Assembly: GCA_903879985.1 (NCBI GenBank)
Contig: CAIRNR010000004.1
Location: 96,762 to 160,761, forward strand
DNA: 64,000 nt
DNA from: an uncultured candidate division WWE3 bacterium
GTDB taxonomy: Bacteria; Patescibacteriota; WWE3; UBA101185; UBA10185
Reading direction: 5' to 3'
Shown here: in pieces, positions 4,011-34,895 of the stretch
Layout: every line of letters starts with the position of its first letter
How positions within the stretch are numbered: the stretch's first letter is position 1
Program-made: the position numbers and the translations under genes
Notes under the pieces: generated by a model
Databases searched by the model: none
What the model saw: the letters and a program-made list of their open reading frames with translations, nothing else
What the model was told of the DNA's origin: nothing

Positions 4011-4463
4011 ATGAACTATTTTCGAAAACTATTTGAAGCAGCATCAAAAGAAGAACCAGTAGAGCAACCAGCAGTATCAAGAGCTGAACTATTGCAAAAT
4101 GAAATGCTTACACTTACGCTTCGACGAGAACTACCTACCCGATTTGAATATAAGACATCTGAAGGTGAACACGTGGCAGTATGGTTTGATGCCCTTGGTA
4201 AGCAAACGGATGAGTTTAATCACGATAACTTCGATAAATTTTTAGATATTGGAAAATTCCATTTAATCCAGGAAAAGGATGATCATGATATGCAGGTTCT
4301 TATAAAATCTATGAGTCAACTGTTTGCTCGCGATTTAGGAACATGTGTAAAGATTAATGATCAATGGTTTGATGCAGAAGGTGCTATGGTAGATGCGGAG
4401 GACGCCGCTAGATTTGAGACAATGTTGAATGAACTTCCCCTAAGAAAATTGACAGTGGATTAA
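4011..4463 (+). CDS. Hypothetical protein
   Basis: Open frame with no recognisable motif; start uncertain. Confidence 0.6.
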   Translation: MNYFRKLFEAASKEEPVEQPAVSRAELLQNEMLTLTLRRELPTRFEYKTSEGEHVAVWFDALGKQTDEFNHDNFDKFLDIGKFHLIQEKDDHDMQVLIKSMSQLFARDLGTCVKINDQWFDAEGAMVDAEDAARFETMLNELPLRKLTVD

Positions 4464-4472
4464 GTAAAGTTT

Positions 4473-4546
4473 TGGCTGGGGGACAGGGATTCGAACCCCA
4501 ATAGTCGGGACCAAAACCCGAAGTCCTACCATTAGACGATCCCCCA
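4473..4546 (-). tRNA. tRNA-Gln(TTG)
   Basis: TGGGGGA/TCCCCCA acceptor, TCGGG-TTTTGGT-CCCGA anticodon arm, GGTTCGAATCC, encoded CCA. Confidence 0.95.
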
Positions 4547-4629
4547 TAAGTAAACACTCACAAAACTAACTCGGCAATTATATCACCGAAATACGCATAT
4601 AGCGCAAGCAAATCAGCAGCGTTTAAAAG

Positions 4630-5124
4630 TTACTTCACCACCGCCAACTCACTCATATCAAACGCTCTTTCATCAATCAAATTCCCAAACTCATCCAAAA
4701 CCCTCAATTTATAAAACTGAGGTCGCAGATTCACAACACTTCCATTAATCTCGTATAAAACATCCACTTTTTCATTAACATCACTGGCGTCGCCACTCAA
4801 AGTTATGTTTAAATCCTGGGCAAAATTAACAAATGGCCAGCTAGTTTTAAAGCTCACACTTGGGTTTAAAGTAGCCTTTTGGATCTTTCCTTGCTTTTCT
4901 GTAAGTCTCAGCATAAAGTCCACGCCGTACAACTTGTCCTTTGCTACCACATCGCTATTATCTTTAATAATCAATGGTGCTTCAGGTGCGGTTCCAGCCG
5001 TTAAGTTAGTTATAGTGTACTTAAGCTTTGGTGATGCATTTAAAAATAACAAATATATTCCAACTCCTAAAGCAAAAGCTCCGCTGGCTAACATTAATAT
5101 GGTTTTACGGCTATAGAATGTCAT
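4630..5124 (-). CDS. Membrane-anchored hypothetical protein
   Basis: N-terminal TM helix and beta-rich remainder. Confidence 0.65.
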   Translation of the reverse strand: MTFYSRKTILMLASGAFALGVGIYLLFLNASPKLKYTITNLTAGTAPEAPLIIKDNSDVVAKDKLYGVDFMLRLTEKQGKIQKATLNPSVSFKTSWPFVNFAQDLNITLSGDASDVNEKVDVLYEINGSVVNLRPQFYKLRVLDEFGNLIDERAFDMSELAVVK

Positions 5125-5158
5125 GCCACAATATTACCATTTTTGTTATAATTCATAA

Positions 5159-5866
5159 ATGATGCCTCAAATGTTTAAGGCTACCTTGAAGCAAAAAACG
5201 ACTTTATCTCCCAAAGCAACTGGACTGACCCTACAGTTAATTGAACCTACTAAAATTGAATTCAATCCCGGACAGTTTGTTAACTTAAAAGTTGCCGACG
5301 CTGTTTATAGGGCTTATTCAATTGCATCTCCGTGTGCACAACAAGATAAAATTTTCTTAATCGTTACAACAAGTCACGAAGGTGTCGGTTCTGAATATGT
5401 GCGAAATCTTCATATTGGCGACGAAGTTACGTTTATTGGGCCATCAGGAAAGTTGCATTTAAAAGAAAAACATTCTAAAGCTATTTATTTTTTCGCAACC
5501 GGTTCTGGTATAGCTCCATTTATTTCAATGCTTGAACAATTAGCATGTGATAATTATTCTGGAAAGATTCATTTGTTTTTTGGTGTTCGTCATCCAGAAG
5601 AAGTTTTATGTTTAGATGAATTAACAGGTTTAAAAAAACGTCTAAAGGATTTTACGATAGACTTTTATGTTTCTAATCCTCAAGATGATTTTATGGGTGT
5701 AAAAGGCAGGGTTACTGCGGCTATTCCAAATATTACCGATTTTAATGCGGACTTTTATTTATGTGGGCATCCTCAAATGGTCGAAGATGTTAACACTGCT
5801 TTAAAAGCTAAAGGTGTCCCCGACGAAAATATTATTTGCGAGGGTTTTACTAAGACCTTGAAGTAA
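5159..5866 (+). CDS. FAD/NAD(P)-binding oxidoreductase, ferredoxin reductase family
   Basis: [38 protein letters not shown] motifs. Confidence 0.9.
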
Positions 5867-21058: not shown

Positions 21059-21553
21059 ATGTCTTTTTCAAACGATTCCGTAAATGCAATTTGGAAAAGG
21101 TCTGGAGGGCCATTGGCAAAATGTTTTACATGCGGAAGAAAATGTGCCGATGGTTGGAATCTAGATGCAAGTCACATGGATCACACGAAAAATCATGATT
21201 ACGATGATCCTACGCGAGGTCAACTTGAATGTCTTTGGTGCCATCTGACCAGACACGTTAGATATTATTATGAGTATTGTTTAAAGGAGGATAGTTCTAA
21301 GAAAAGGTTGAGAGAAAATCGTTATATGTGTCATGCATTGGTTATGCGTATTTTAGCAGGAGAAGATCGGCATGAGCGCGGACCAGTACCAAGAACACAT
21401 AAAGAAATTAAGACAACAAGGAAAGAGCTTGTGGTTTTGATTGAAGCAGAGTTTAAAAAAGCAAGAAAAGCCGCGAAAAAGAATAACTTTAAGGAAAAAC
21501 CACTTATAAAGGCGGAGGAGAAAATCTTAGAACTTTGCTACATGATCCGTTAG
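21059..21553 (+). CDS. Putative HNH-like zinc-binding nuclease
   Basis: CFTCG...LDASH.DH...LECLWCH...H; SD-led. Confidence 0.6.
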   Translation: MSFSNDSVNAIWKRSGGPLAKCFTCGRKCADGWNLDASHMDHTKNHDYDDPTRGQLECLWCHLTRHVRYYYEYCLKEDSSKKRLRENRYMCHALVMRILAGEDRHERGPVPRTHKEIKTTRKELVVLIEAEFKKARKAAKKNNFKEKPLIKAEEKILELCYMIR

Positions 21554-21588: not shown

Positions 21589-22929
21589 TTATCTGCTTTT
21601 TTTGTTTTCGTCTGCCACAAACTTTATGACCCGATGTAAAGCTTCAACCATTTTTTCTTTATTATTAGTAAATGTCAGCCTATACCAATTGCCACAATCT
21701 TTTGGCATATCAAAAGCTTCCCCTGGTGCCAAAACAACGCCTGTATTAAAAAACATTTTCTTAAAAAAATCGTATGTAGTACCTGTGTGGTCAATTTTTA
21801 AACCCATGTTTATTCCTGCATCAGGTACTATTGCTTTAATGTATGGGGAGGCCTTAAGTTCGCTTAAAACTAAGTCTCTATAATCAATATATTCTGAAAT
21901 TGTTTCTTTTACTTCTCTAGTGTATTGAGGAAGTTCCTTGGAATAGTTGCCTATAATTTCAAATTCACGTGAGTTTTCTTTTTTTCTAGAATCATCTATA
22001 TCGTAACCGCCTTTCATTAATGTTCTTAGCAAAATATCTTTAACTATAAAATTATCAAAAACTGTGGGCGGACACGTATATGATGTGTCTACAATCAAGT
22101 TTAGTTCGTTCATTAATGCTTCACTGCCAAGAACATATCCCATGCGTATTCCAGGGGCTGCACGATCCTTAGAAAATGCTTTAACTCGTATTATGTAGTC
22201 TTGGTTTTGGTTAACAGACCCAATATTTGGTACCGGTTTAAAACCCATGTCGTAAAATATTTCGTCAACAATTATGTAAATCTTTTTTTCGTTAGAAAGT
22301 GTAACGAGTCTTTCAAGTTCGGTTTCACTAAAGAATTTTCCAAATGGAAAGCTTGGGTTGGTTAAAATAATAAAACGAGTTTCAGAATCAATACTATTTT
22401 CAATGTCTTCTATTGTTGGCAAAAATCCTCGATCTTCTTTACCACAAACCTTTACGATTTTAAATTTCTTCCAAAGTACTCCTTCGTATACAGGGTATGC
22501 TGGTTGGACCAAAATGGCGTTGCCTTTGTATTTATAATGCTGAAGTAATACTTTTAGCGACATGGAAAAACCACCAGTAGAACTAAGCACCATAGCCACG
22601 TTATTTTCGGTAAACCGATTGATACCTTGAATATAGTTTTCGTATTTGGCTATAACATCCCGAACAAAAGGATTTCCTAGCTGGTGTGTGTAGCTGAAAT
22701 AAGATTTTTTAACTGATTCACTTAAAACTTCTGTTAAACATGTGGGAATTGGAAACTCATCGCGATCTACGTCACCTCCACCAAGATGCATGTAAAACCC
22801 AAGTTGTTTTTGAATTTTTCCGGAATAGTCTAACCAATCCCTAATATATTGGTGATAGTATCGAAAAGCGTAAGGTACACGATTATCTAAAATCGTCGGT
22901 GTATAAGAACCTTTAAGAGGTTTATTCAT
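21589..22929 (-). CDS. PLP-dependent enzyme, aminotransferase class I/II (fold type I)
   Basis: P.YP.Y, NPSFPFG, VDEIFY, FSKD..APGIRMGY (PLP Lys), PG.AF, RLTF. Confidence 0.88.
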   Translation of the reverse strand: MNKPLKGSYTPTILDNRVPYAFRYYHQYIRDWLDYSGKIQKQLGFYMHLGGGDVDRDEFPIPTCLTEVLSESVKKSYFSYTHQLGNPFVRDVIAKYENYIQGINRFTENNVAMVLSSTGGFSMSLKVLLQHYKYKGNAILVQPAYPVYEGVLWKKFKIVKVCGKEDRGFLPTIEDIENSIDSETRFIILTNPSFPFGKFFSETELERLVTLSNEKKIYIIVDEIFYDMGFKPVPNIGSVNQNQDYIIRVKAFSKDRAAPGIRMGYVLGSEALMNELNLIVDTSYTCPPTVFDNFIVKDILLRTLMKGGYDIDDSRKKENSREFEIIGNYSKELPQYTREVKETISEYIDYRDLVLSELKASPYIKAIVPDAGINMGLKIDHTGTTYDFFKKMFFNTGVVLAPGEAFDMPKDCGNWYRLTFTNNKEKMVEALHRVIKFVADENKKSR

Positions 22930-22938
22930 GTTTAATTT

Positions 22939-24042
22939 CTAGTTAATTTGATCAAAGACCAGAGATTTATCCAAGTTTTTAGGATCCCTAATAAACGCTA
23001 TGGCCTCAGTTGTGCTTAAAATAGGAATTAAATATTTTTCACGTTCATCTAGGGCAACTCGTGGACAAAGTGTTGAAACTAAAATATCAAAATCTGTGCT
23101 ATTAATCGAATCAGAGTTAAAGAAATCTACCAGCACTATATCTGTTATGTATCCGCCTTTTTCATATTCTTTTTGAAGCTTTAATAATGATTCCATGCGA
23201 GATTGCCCAAACTTATTGCTGATTATAAAACCAACCTTTTTAGCTTTTTTAAGCTGCTGTTTGAGCGCTGTTAGTTTTGTTCTGTGTAGCTTCAGAAGTT
23301 TTTTATACTCATAAATATTCGTATCTCCTGACACCGGATCAAAGCATATAACATCTTTATGGGTAGCTAAAGACACAGGTAAAGCGTGAAAACCTCCGCC
23401 TTCAAACATTACAAACACGTCTACTTTGTCCATAACTTTTGTGGCCGAAGATGGATTACATCCTAAAACTTGACCTGCAAATCCAACGCGATCAGTACCT
23501 TTACCAACGAAAACATTTATACCTGCTGCGGTTAAAGCTTTTTTAGCTATTGGAACATTTTTAATATATTGAACTGAGCTTATTAATCCAATGTTTTCAA
23601 TTTTATTTTTACTTAAGTAAGCCACAGCTTTTGTAATTTGATCGTCGATACCGATTTTCATGTATAAAGGTACATAAACAACTTTAAATTTCTTTGGGAG
23701 AATTCTATTACTAATAGCAACGTTTCCAAAGTGAATTATTTTATTAATGCCTAATGTCTCGAATTGATAGTACTTAATGTCGCAAGCACCAAAGCAAGTG
23801 TCACCGGATAATATTATCTTTGTATTAAGAGATTTTTCCAGGTATGCGATTAAATCGTGTGAAAACTTTTTTAATCCTTCAGGGATTTCTAAGCCTACTA
23901 ATGCATCTTTTACAGTACCAAGCTCGGTTTTAATTCTATCTATTTCTAGTTCGTATTTGTCTAGGAAATCCTCAAAACTCTCGTAGTCGGGATGTAAACG
24001 ATTAACAAAAGGCTTAGAAGTATGATGATAAGGCTCAATCAT
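22939..24042 (-). CDS. dph2: Dph2/Dph1-family radical-SAM 3-amino-3-carboxypropyl transferase homolog
   Basis: IPEGL, GDTCFGACDI, IHFG, GQVLGCN, GGFH, K.GQ, LCPRVALD, PILS..E. Confidence 0.88.
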   Translation of the reverse strand: MIEPYHHTSKPFVNRLHPDYESFEDFLDKYELEIDRIKTELGTVKDALVGLEIPEGLKKFSHDLIAYLEKSLNTKIILSGDTCFGACDIKYYQFETLGINKIIHFGNVAISNRILPKKFKVVYVPLYMKIGIDDQITKAVAYLSKNKIENIGLISSVQYIKNVPIAKKALTAAGINVFVGKGTDRVGFAGQVLGCNPSSATKVMDKVDVFVMFEGGGFHALPVSLATHKDVICFDPVSGDTNIYEYKKLLKLHRTKLTALKQQLKKAKKVGFIISNKFGQSRMESLLKLQKEYEKGGYITDIVLVDFFNSDSINSTDFDILVSTLCPRVALDEREKYLIPILSTTEAIAFIRDPKNLDKSLVFDQIN

Positions 24043-24072
24043 TGGGTGTATTCTAGCACAAGATGTAAAGAG

Positions 24073-33842: not shown

Positions 33843-34895
33843 ATGGCAAACCAGATCAACTTTTTACAACCAAAAACCCGCGAAGCTAAGATCGAAGAGA
33901 TACTTAATCGCTACAATCAGCCGGAATACCGCCTTAAACAGGTGTTCGAAGCTATTTACAAAAAACACGTTAAAACCTACGACGAAATAACAACTCTTTC
34001 AAAGGAACTACGCGAAGATTTTAAAAACGAGCTTGGAGATATACTAACACTAAAACCGATCGCCATCACTACCGACGAATTTACCGAAAAAGTACTATTT
34101 GAAACTATCGACGGAAGCAAAATTGAGGCCGTAAAAATCAAATATAAAGATCACACCTCATTATGTGTTTCTTCACAAGCTGGTTGCGCATTAGGATGTA
34201 AATTTTGTGCTACAGGAACCTTGGGTTTTAGAAAGAACTTGAGTCCCGACGAAATTTGCGACCAACTTCTCTACTTCATTCAAAAAGGTGAAAAAATAGA
34301 TACGATCGTATTTATGGGTATGGGTGAACCTTTTGCTAACCCACAATTGTTTGACGCACTAGCCATGCTTACAGATCCAGATTATTTTGGATTAGGTCAA
34401 AGAAAAATTAGTGTTTCTACAGTCGGACTTATTCCCGGTATTCAAAGACTCGCAAAGGAATTTCCACAAATAAACTTAGCCTACTCATTACATTCGGCTT
34501 TTCACGAACAAAGAATGGAATTAATGCCAGTTGCCAAAGTTTACCCTGCCGAAGCAGTTTTTATTGAATTAAAAGATTATATTGAACAAACAAATCGAAA
34601 AGTTTTCATTGCTTACTTATTAATCAAAGGCGTTAACGATTCACCTGAACATGCTAAAGCACTGGCAGCTCTAATTAAAAAACAAGGTCCTAAGTCTTAT
34701 CTTTATCATATTAACTTAATTAAATTCCATGAAAGTGATGTTGTTAAAGGAATGAAAAAACCCGATGAAACAGCAGTTGAACGTTTTAGTACCGTTTTAA
34801 TGCATCGCGGAATAGCTTATACACTACGACAAAGTTTTGGTGAAGAAATTGACGCAGCTTGTGGTCAATTGTTTGCAAAGAATAGAAAAAAGTAA
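33843..34895 (+). CDS. Cfr/RlmN-family radical-SAM rRNA methyltransferase, Cfr-like
   Basis: CALGCKFC, MGMGEP, SLH, IDAACGQL. Confidence 0.92.
   Translation: MANQINFLQPKTREAKIEEILNRYNQPEYRLKQVFEAIYKKHVKTYDEITTLSKELREDFKNELGDILTLKPIAITTDEFTEKVLFETIDGSKIEAVKIKYKDHTSLCVSSQAGCALGCKFCATGTLGFRKNLSPDEICDQLLYFIQKGEKIDTIVFMGMGEPFANPQLFDALAMLTDPDYFGLGQRKISVSTVGLIPGIQRLAKEFPQINLAYSLHSAFHEQRMELMPVAKVYPAEAVFIELKDYIEQTNRKVFIAYLLIKGVNDSPEHAKALAALIKKQGPKSYLYHINLIKFHESDVVKGMKKPDETAVERFSTVLMHRGIAYTLRQSFGEEIDAACGQLFAKNRKK

Follow-up and report, generated by a model that had tools for sequence, protein, structure and literature searches.

In the nicotianamine and staphylopine routes, transfer of SAM-derived 3-amino-3-carboxypropyl (ACP) is followed by a tailoring enzyme, and the chemistry is a polar N-alkylation carried out by a methyltransferase fold. 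The archaeal Dph2 homodimer (PDB 6BXN, 6Q2D, 3LZD; TIGR03682) works with an ACP radical, and the single substrate of Dph2/Dph1 given in the accessible parts of the literature is the EF-2 histidine. The diphthamide pathway is treated as archaeal/eukaryotic in the available text of PMC6143161 and PMC3541065. No report of a bacterial Dph2 was found in the mostly open and partly accessible literature on Dph2/diphthamide in bacteria, Patescibacteria, CPR/WWE3 or gene clusters; the supplements of PMC6143161 could list stray bacterial homologs. Among the PLP enzymes, PseP (PDB 8K3H) and GntC are both described with gamma-elimination chemistry in the accessible portions of PMC13518217, PMC10491745 and bioRxiv 2023.03.21.533663.

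A Dph2-fold gene and a fold-type I PLP gene were analyzed here in the window, which is the whole 64,000-nt stretch of DNA from an uncultured WWE3 bacterium. The source genome (G000) is 1.01 Mb in 8 contigs and 97.8% complete, and a relative from the same family (G016) is a single contig, 94% complete. The features of the locus are as follows.

21589..22929, minus strand: fold-type I PLP enzyme, 446 aa (PF00155, E 7.5e-34)
22939..24042, minus strand: Dph2-fold non-canonical radical-SAM enzyme, 367 aa, of a bacterial (WWE3) clade (HMM, AF2, Foldseek, tree)
23065..23067, minus strand: Cys326, [4Fe-4S] ligand 3, adjoining R328 of the SAM pocket; invariant
23458..23460, minus strand: Cys195, [4Fe-4S] ligand 2; invariant
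23782..23784, minus strand: Cys87, [4Fe-4S] ligand 1; invariant in clade and outgroup
23959..24042, minus strand: N-terminal extension of about 28 aa, with the motif Y5-H6-(H/Y)7-T8-x-(R/K)10 at 24013-24030
24050..24058, minus strand: extended -10 element with a leaderless-type start (from sequence; layout common in the source genome)

The Dph2-fold enzyme and its remodelled residues

The original prediction placed a 367-aa Dph2 with three cysteine motifs 9 nt upstream of the PLP gene, and the ORF coordinates agree with this. The motifs CFGACD, GQVLGCN and LCPR supply C87, C195 and C326, one cluster cysteine per domain. The protein scored 236.3 bits against TIGR03682, over the cut-off of 202.8, and matched PF01866 with an E value of 4e-55. 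Its AF2 model (pLDDT 88.9) was used as the Foldseek query; TMq reached 0.75-0.82 to archaeal Dph2, the next matches were at 0.25 or below, and high TM values were obtained to Dph2 structures only. The SAM pocket of CmnDph2 is formed by G158, H180, Q237, V265, R285, D289 and D290, as given in the accessible part of PMC10669111. These residues align to G194, H219, Q280, F308, R328, D332 and E333, five of the seven being identical and two conservative. The fold, the three-Cys cluster and the SAM pocket are thus shared with the archaeal homodimer, and so is the Arg (R328 here) to which guidance of the ACP radical is ascribed. The intact cluster and SAM-pocket residues indicate that SAM cleavage, yielding an ACP radical and MTA, is a likely activity of the enzyme, and a functional ACP enzyme with a target other than EF-2 is highly probable.

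The -10 element, TGCTAGAAT, ends 7 nt before the Dph2 ATG as first described, and a -10-like element lies at a comparable distance in G016 and in a third locus, L005. A TAnnnT sequence was found 5-8 nt upstream of 181 of 481 long ATG ORFs in the source genome. Because this layout is common here, the element backs the Dph2 start codon and is nothing special.

Five Dph2 relatives were found at 44-64% identity, after which identity falls to 34% or less; a profile search brought two further members, giving a clade of 8 sequences. A quick ML tree was built from the 8 clade members, 40 of 80 genome-contig loci and 22 protein matches (70 rows in all). In it, this clade is split off by a branch of length 0.83 with a support of 100, and no archaeal sister was identifiable. 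The nearest ortholog is encoded by G016, and its protein cluster is labelled candidate division WWE3. The host or locus is known for just three clade members, so that a bacterial origin is established for WWE3 and presumed for the others.

Residue comparison was performed against an outgroup of 92 representatives, selected from 176 at less than 70% identity. The cluster and SAM residues are retained in the clade, except in P0007, where R328 and D332 are lost. Unlike archaeal Dph2, the clade carries replacements at H107 (92/92 in the outgroup, Asn in 8/8 clade members), G214 (97% of the outgroup, Glu in 8/8) and Q52 (95%, Glu in 6/7); R257, present in 89% of the outgroup, is retained in only 1/8. 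G222 is also replaced, by Pro or Ser, and the replacements are mostly to one fixed residue per position. This residue pattern would be expected if the acceptor had changed while the radical chemistry stayed as it was.

The N-terminal extension, noted in the original prediction, is real and conserved. All 7 full-length clade members start with Y-H-(H/Y)-T-x-(R/K), and Y5, H6 and T8 are found in each of them, including P0224, which is only 36% identical. Among the 92 outgroup representatives, Y5 and H6 occur in none and T8 in 1%. The motif was not found elsewhere in the source proteome, and residues 1-12 have pLDDT values below 50 in the monomer AF2 model. The invariant and flexible tail raises self-modification as an explanation, in which His6 would be the acceptor in a fused precursor and the PLP enzyme would act on the released or exposed ACP-His. 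Borosin-like logic provides a model for such a fused precursor. The Dph2 chemistry is also tuned to His C2, as stated in the accessible text of PMC3541065. However, the tail motif is unlike the EF-2 loop, no conserved protease lies nearby, a one-turnover enzyme would yield little product, and a lid function accounts for the conservation equally well. Self-modification is considered unlikely.

Diphthamide partners and SAM synthesis in the host

The lack of dph5, dph6 and EF-2 genes, first noted for the window, extends genome-wide in the source genome. One EFG_IV gene each is present in the source genome and G016, with the ordinary bacterial loop FHEVDSSE/YHEVDSSE, and the H-R-G-G/P-x-Q motif is absent from the proteome. 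The sole TP_methylase of the source genome is RsmI, so there is no dph5; G016 has one PF00590 match of similar size. Dph6 (PF01902) was found in neither of the two genomes. These absences, together with the PLP-enzyme operon and the conserved His tail, set the WWE3 enzyme apart from archaeal Dph2.

The ancestral Dph2 reaction is a protein modification, and the target here could likewise be a protein, whether EF-G, as a bacterial translation factor, or another one with a suitable His. The linked RsmC-like methyltransferase, whose NPP(F/L)H motif is of the amine-directed type, could then act in a Dph5-like manner. The ordinary EF-G loop and the missing EF-2-type motif argue against this, as do the loss of the conserved Arg257 and the occurrence of the methyltransferase without Dph2 in three genomes. 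A protein target of this kind is improbable.

No SAM synthetase of either type was found in the source genome or G016. MetK occurs in 2 of 86 family genomes, neither one a Dph2 genome; since it is missing in 84/86, its absence is a lineage trait that is not special to the two Dph2 genomes. SAM-using RsmI and 2-8 radical-SAM genes are retained in all five family genomes tested. With these genes kept and MetK so rare, SAM must be scavenged in the MetK-less family genomes. An RlmN-like radical-SAM methyltransferase gene also lies in the window at 33843-34895 (+); it is present in G016 and was not found in the G014 sequence examined.

The PLP enzyme and the recurrence of the pair

The PLP enzyme retains K254, D222, R262, R417 and Y80, corresponding to the Asp, Lys, two Arg and Tyr of class I aminotransferases; R417 is the carboxylate-binding Arg. 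An insertion is present around residues 295-330. At the two positions where Asn and Tyr ordinarily bind PLP 3'-O, the enzyme has F194 and F225. In aspartate aminotransferase, loss of such ligands impairs transamination. F194 was found in 11 of 150 aligned matches, all from this PLP family, and Asn in 138. In GntC the equivalent ligands are N158 and Y189, according to the accessible part of bioRxiv 2023.03.21.533663. Plain transamination, one option in the original prediction, is less likely because both canonical ligand positions are Phe, and the protein is no standard aminotransferase.

The best PDB sequence match of both the protein and its family profile was the SAM gamma-lyase PseP (8K3H; E 8.9e-41), the only one among the PDB matches listed that aligned over profile positions 47-439. 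The similarity to SbzP/PseP is near full-length, including the insertion, the catalytic Lys and an aromatic residue at the F457 position: PseP F457 corresponds to Y77, which is Tyr in 8/8 alignment rows and 11/12 family members. PseP R466 corresponds to N86, and Y699 to F323 in an alignment-dependent way. The four Dph2-linked PLP enzymes form a clade (support 95) with Asn or Asp at the R466 position, where the 8/8 other family members have Arg or Lys, and this loss is one event on the tree. Because the Arg is lost in the Dph2-linked subclade, the comparison suggests a substrate other than SAM for these enzymes.

Several observations speak against membership in SbzP. The NAD-binding F413/Y418 motif (D-L-Y-G in P0089 and most SbzP-like rows) is absent from the PLP enzyme (P0002), and R466 is replaced. 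In a quick tree of 62 rows, the PLP family (12 rows, support 99) and the SbzP-like clade are separate from each other, and both lie outside the generic aminotransferase group. Fold searches by Foldseek and VIA put ordinary aminotransferases first; PseP ranked 10th in Foldseek, a near tie, and was not among the VIA best 50. The top NCBIfam match was GntC (NF041364), an enzyme of the GntC/VioD gamma-elimination type, but no guanitoxin-type context is found here. The score of 150.7 bits is far under the cut-off of 415 and does not support assignment as a GntC cyclodehydratase.

The pair recurs. Dph2 and PLP genes are adjacent in the window, in G016 (with a 4-nt overlap) and in L005, and a fourth pair is inferred from P0005 (Dph2) and P0059 (PLP), both on contigs of 11,483 nt. 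The loci read directly number three, two of them from one family. The PLP family is not Dph2-specific, since close relatives occur with no detectable Dph2 partner, namely in G003 (truncated) and at a Nomurabacteria locus. For three further relatives, P0060-62, no clade Dph2 lies on a contig of equal length. A related PLP domain was also observed in P0071, a 1390-aa protein in which it is fused to a STAND-like NTPase and HEAT repeats. In another bacterial family of this class (L198, L199 and L200, in G060, G499 and G501), annotation by eye shows a class I aminotransferase fused to a MurE-like ligase in the cell-wall cluster.

The distribution is very patchy. Dph2 is found in 2 of 86 family genomes; of the 401 sampled from the phylum, the source genome itself is the one that has it, and full PLP orthologs are found in 2 of 134 class genomes. 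The L005 PLP gene (4258-5582) is frameshifted near codon 40-46, and P0007 looks damaged. These features could point to a horizontally acquired relic with no coupled function. Against this, the cluster mates of the L005 PLP gene are full-length (441 aa), and the Dph2 enzymes form a deep, 8-member clade whose ligands are intact. Identity between the source genome and G016 is 64%/66% for Dph2/PLP, whereas 517 shared genes have a median of 52%, and the saturated pS (0.87/0.81) with low pN (0.24/0.22) indicates that both genes are old residents under purifying selection. The GC3 values are host-like, at the 21st and 28th percentile of 487 ORFs. A relic is very improbable.

A chimera with archaeal DNA had also been raised at the outset. 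The locus is no chimera, because the window GC is even, GC3 is host-like, and the orthologous pair also occurs in G016, a same-family genome made up of one contig.

Two other proteins were observed along the way. A 471-aa protein of the source genome (C7:10800-12215) is 79% identical to its G016 counterpart (median 52%) and was not found in G014. A 164-aa ORF at 21059-21553 (+) of the window is convergent on the PLP gene; it has two CxxC pairs and His residues, looks HNH-like by eye, and gave no Pfam/NCBIfam match.

The linked importer and the proposed pathway

All three Dph2-PLP genomes or loci carry a YkoE-like ECF importer and the RsmC-like methyltransferase, adjacent to the pair in two and 70 kb off in the source genome. 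The order in G016 is zinc ribbon, Dph2, PLP, 84-aa ORF, ECF S-A-T and a convergent methyltransferase, and in L005, on a single strand, it is ECF S-A-T, Dph2, PLP, methyltransferase and a Cys-rich ORF. The S, A, T, small ORF and methyltransferase orthologs of the source genome are located at C4:43.7-48.4 kb. ECF-S is found in 4 of 86 family genomes, both Dph2 genomes among them (naive p 0.0016, which exaggerates the link, as related genomes do not count independently), and in 1 of 401 phylum genomes sampled, again the source genome. The methyltransferase gave 8 matches among the 86 family genomes, 5 of them strong. ECF and methyltransferase occur without Dph2/PLP in G014, G019 and G075; Dph2-PLP is seen only with the ECF-methyltransferase module, and the reverse does not hold. 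In the source genome the module has GC3 values at the 94th-96th percentile and may be a separate acquisition. A single inherited unit is less convincing because the ECF genes there lie 70 kb off, are more divergent and are GC3-richer.

The S component scored 48.8 against PF09819 (cut-off 25.2) and matched PDB 5EDL with an E value of 4.7e-11. Like the group I thiamine/HMP importer YkoEDC (5EDL), the module combines a PF09819 S component with a double-ATPase A and a T component in one operon. It differs in the linked methyltransferase and 80-90-aa ORF. No Rfam riboswitch, including the TPP type, was found in L004, L005 (which reaches only 154 nt upstream) or L002. A Gottesmanbacteria genome has an S component of 34% identity flanked by a PRTase gene and an amidohydrolase gene, the latter presumably adenine deaminase-like by its motifs. 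This placement of a related S component hints by analogy at an adenine-type ligand. No report was found in the literature on ECF transporters with SAM.

Further details of the module were observed. The YkoE-like ECF operon is tied to the two-domain RsmC-like methyltransferase in the source genome (C4:43738-48400, L179), G014, G016, G019 and G075. In 4 genomes, the interval that separates the ECF S gene from the A gene holds a hairpin with a T-run, as seen by eye. In G014 and G019, ECF-S has a gene of the kanamycin-nucleotidyltransferase type directly upstream (L180 7603-8367; L181 7586-8350). The conserved 80-90-aa ORF accompanies the module in 3/5 family genomes, has no Pfam or Atlas match, and is found at these positions.

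Source genome C4:45120-45359: 80-90-aa ORF
L004 10526-10780: 80-90-aa ORF
L182 8977-9249: 80-90-aa ORF

The importer allows the locus to be read as a SAM-import island, where SAM comes in through the ECF and is used by Dph2, the PLP enzyme and the methyltransferase, each for its own purpose. Elimination of MTA from SAM, in a Mur24/SbzP-like manner, would be the work of the PLP enzyme, and the target of Dph2 would be an unrelated protein or RNA of the cell. The lack of MetK in both Dph2 genomes, the PseP match with its aromatic Y77, and the Gottesmanbacteria ECF context are in line with this. However, 82/86 family genomes have no ECF, nearly all family genomes do without MetK, and the five tested keep their SAM-using genes; moreover, the PLP family is not sister to the SbzP-like enzymes, PseP is not preferred in the fold searches, and the R466 equivalent is lost exactly in the Dph2-linked enzymes. 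Independent SAM consumption is doubtful.

Because the enzyme is bacterial and intact, has no EF-2 target, and belongs to a conserved pair, an ACP pathway other than diphthamide synthesis explains the locus best. To this extent the original proposal of a new pathway held; its target and its PLP reaction are putative. In the two-step pathway favored here, to which a probability of roughly 0.4 is given, a small imidazole or other heteroaromatic compound would receive ACP from Dph2, and its new amino-acid arm would then be processed by the PLP enzyme. Dph2 would first cleave SAM to the ACP radical and MTA. The radical would then add to a small imidazole or heteroaromatic amine, with free histidine or a short His peptide as the first candidates. 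The acidic E52/E214 may hold this small basic substrate and the His tail may cover it, which would close off the large EF-2 cleft. For the ACP arm, elimination, decarboxylation or cyclisation by the PLP enzyme is more likely than plain transamination, and the YkoE-like ECF may bring in SAM or the acceptor. A small product is favored because the fold-type I PLP active site takes free amino acids.

The product would be a small modified amino acid. Nicotianamine and staphylopine chemistry suggests by analogy that it could chelate metal. The likeness lies in a SAM-derived ACP group and a second enzyme near a transporter; the difference is that a radical C-C enzyme is predicted here, and the score against TIGR01265 was 105.6 with a cut-off of 292. 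Profiling against G014 gave 79 acceptor candidates, none an evident target, a comparison confounded by a gap in G014. No conserved electron donor or exporter was found at the loci examined.

The locus is real, rare and unexplained by known pathways, and there is a fair chance that it encodes a new one. The fuller statement falls just short of an even bet: this would be the first Dph2-fold enzyme outside diphthamide synthesis, an ACP transferase on free histidine or its own His tail, joined by the atypical PLP enzyme and by an ECF that imports SAM to make a new SAM-derived amino acid in a MetK-less bacterium. If true, ACP-radical chemistry can be redirected by the same core with a remodelled conserved surface, and the enzyme would be ready for use as a biocatalyst in the C-C aminobutyrylation of heteroarenes. 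The pathway would be a rare specialised biosynthesis in a CPR bacterium, and the linked ECF a testable candidate route to SAM or related adenine compounds in MetK-less CPR cells.
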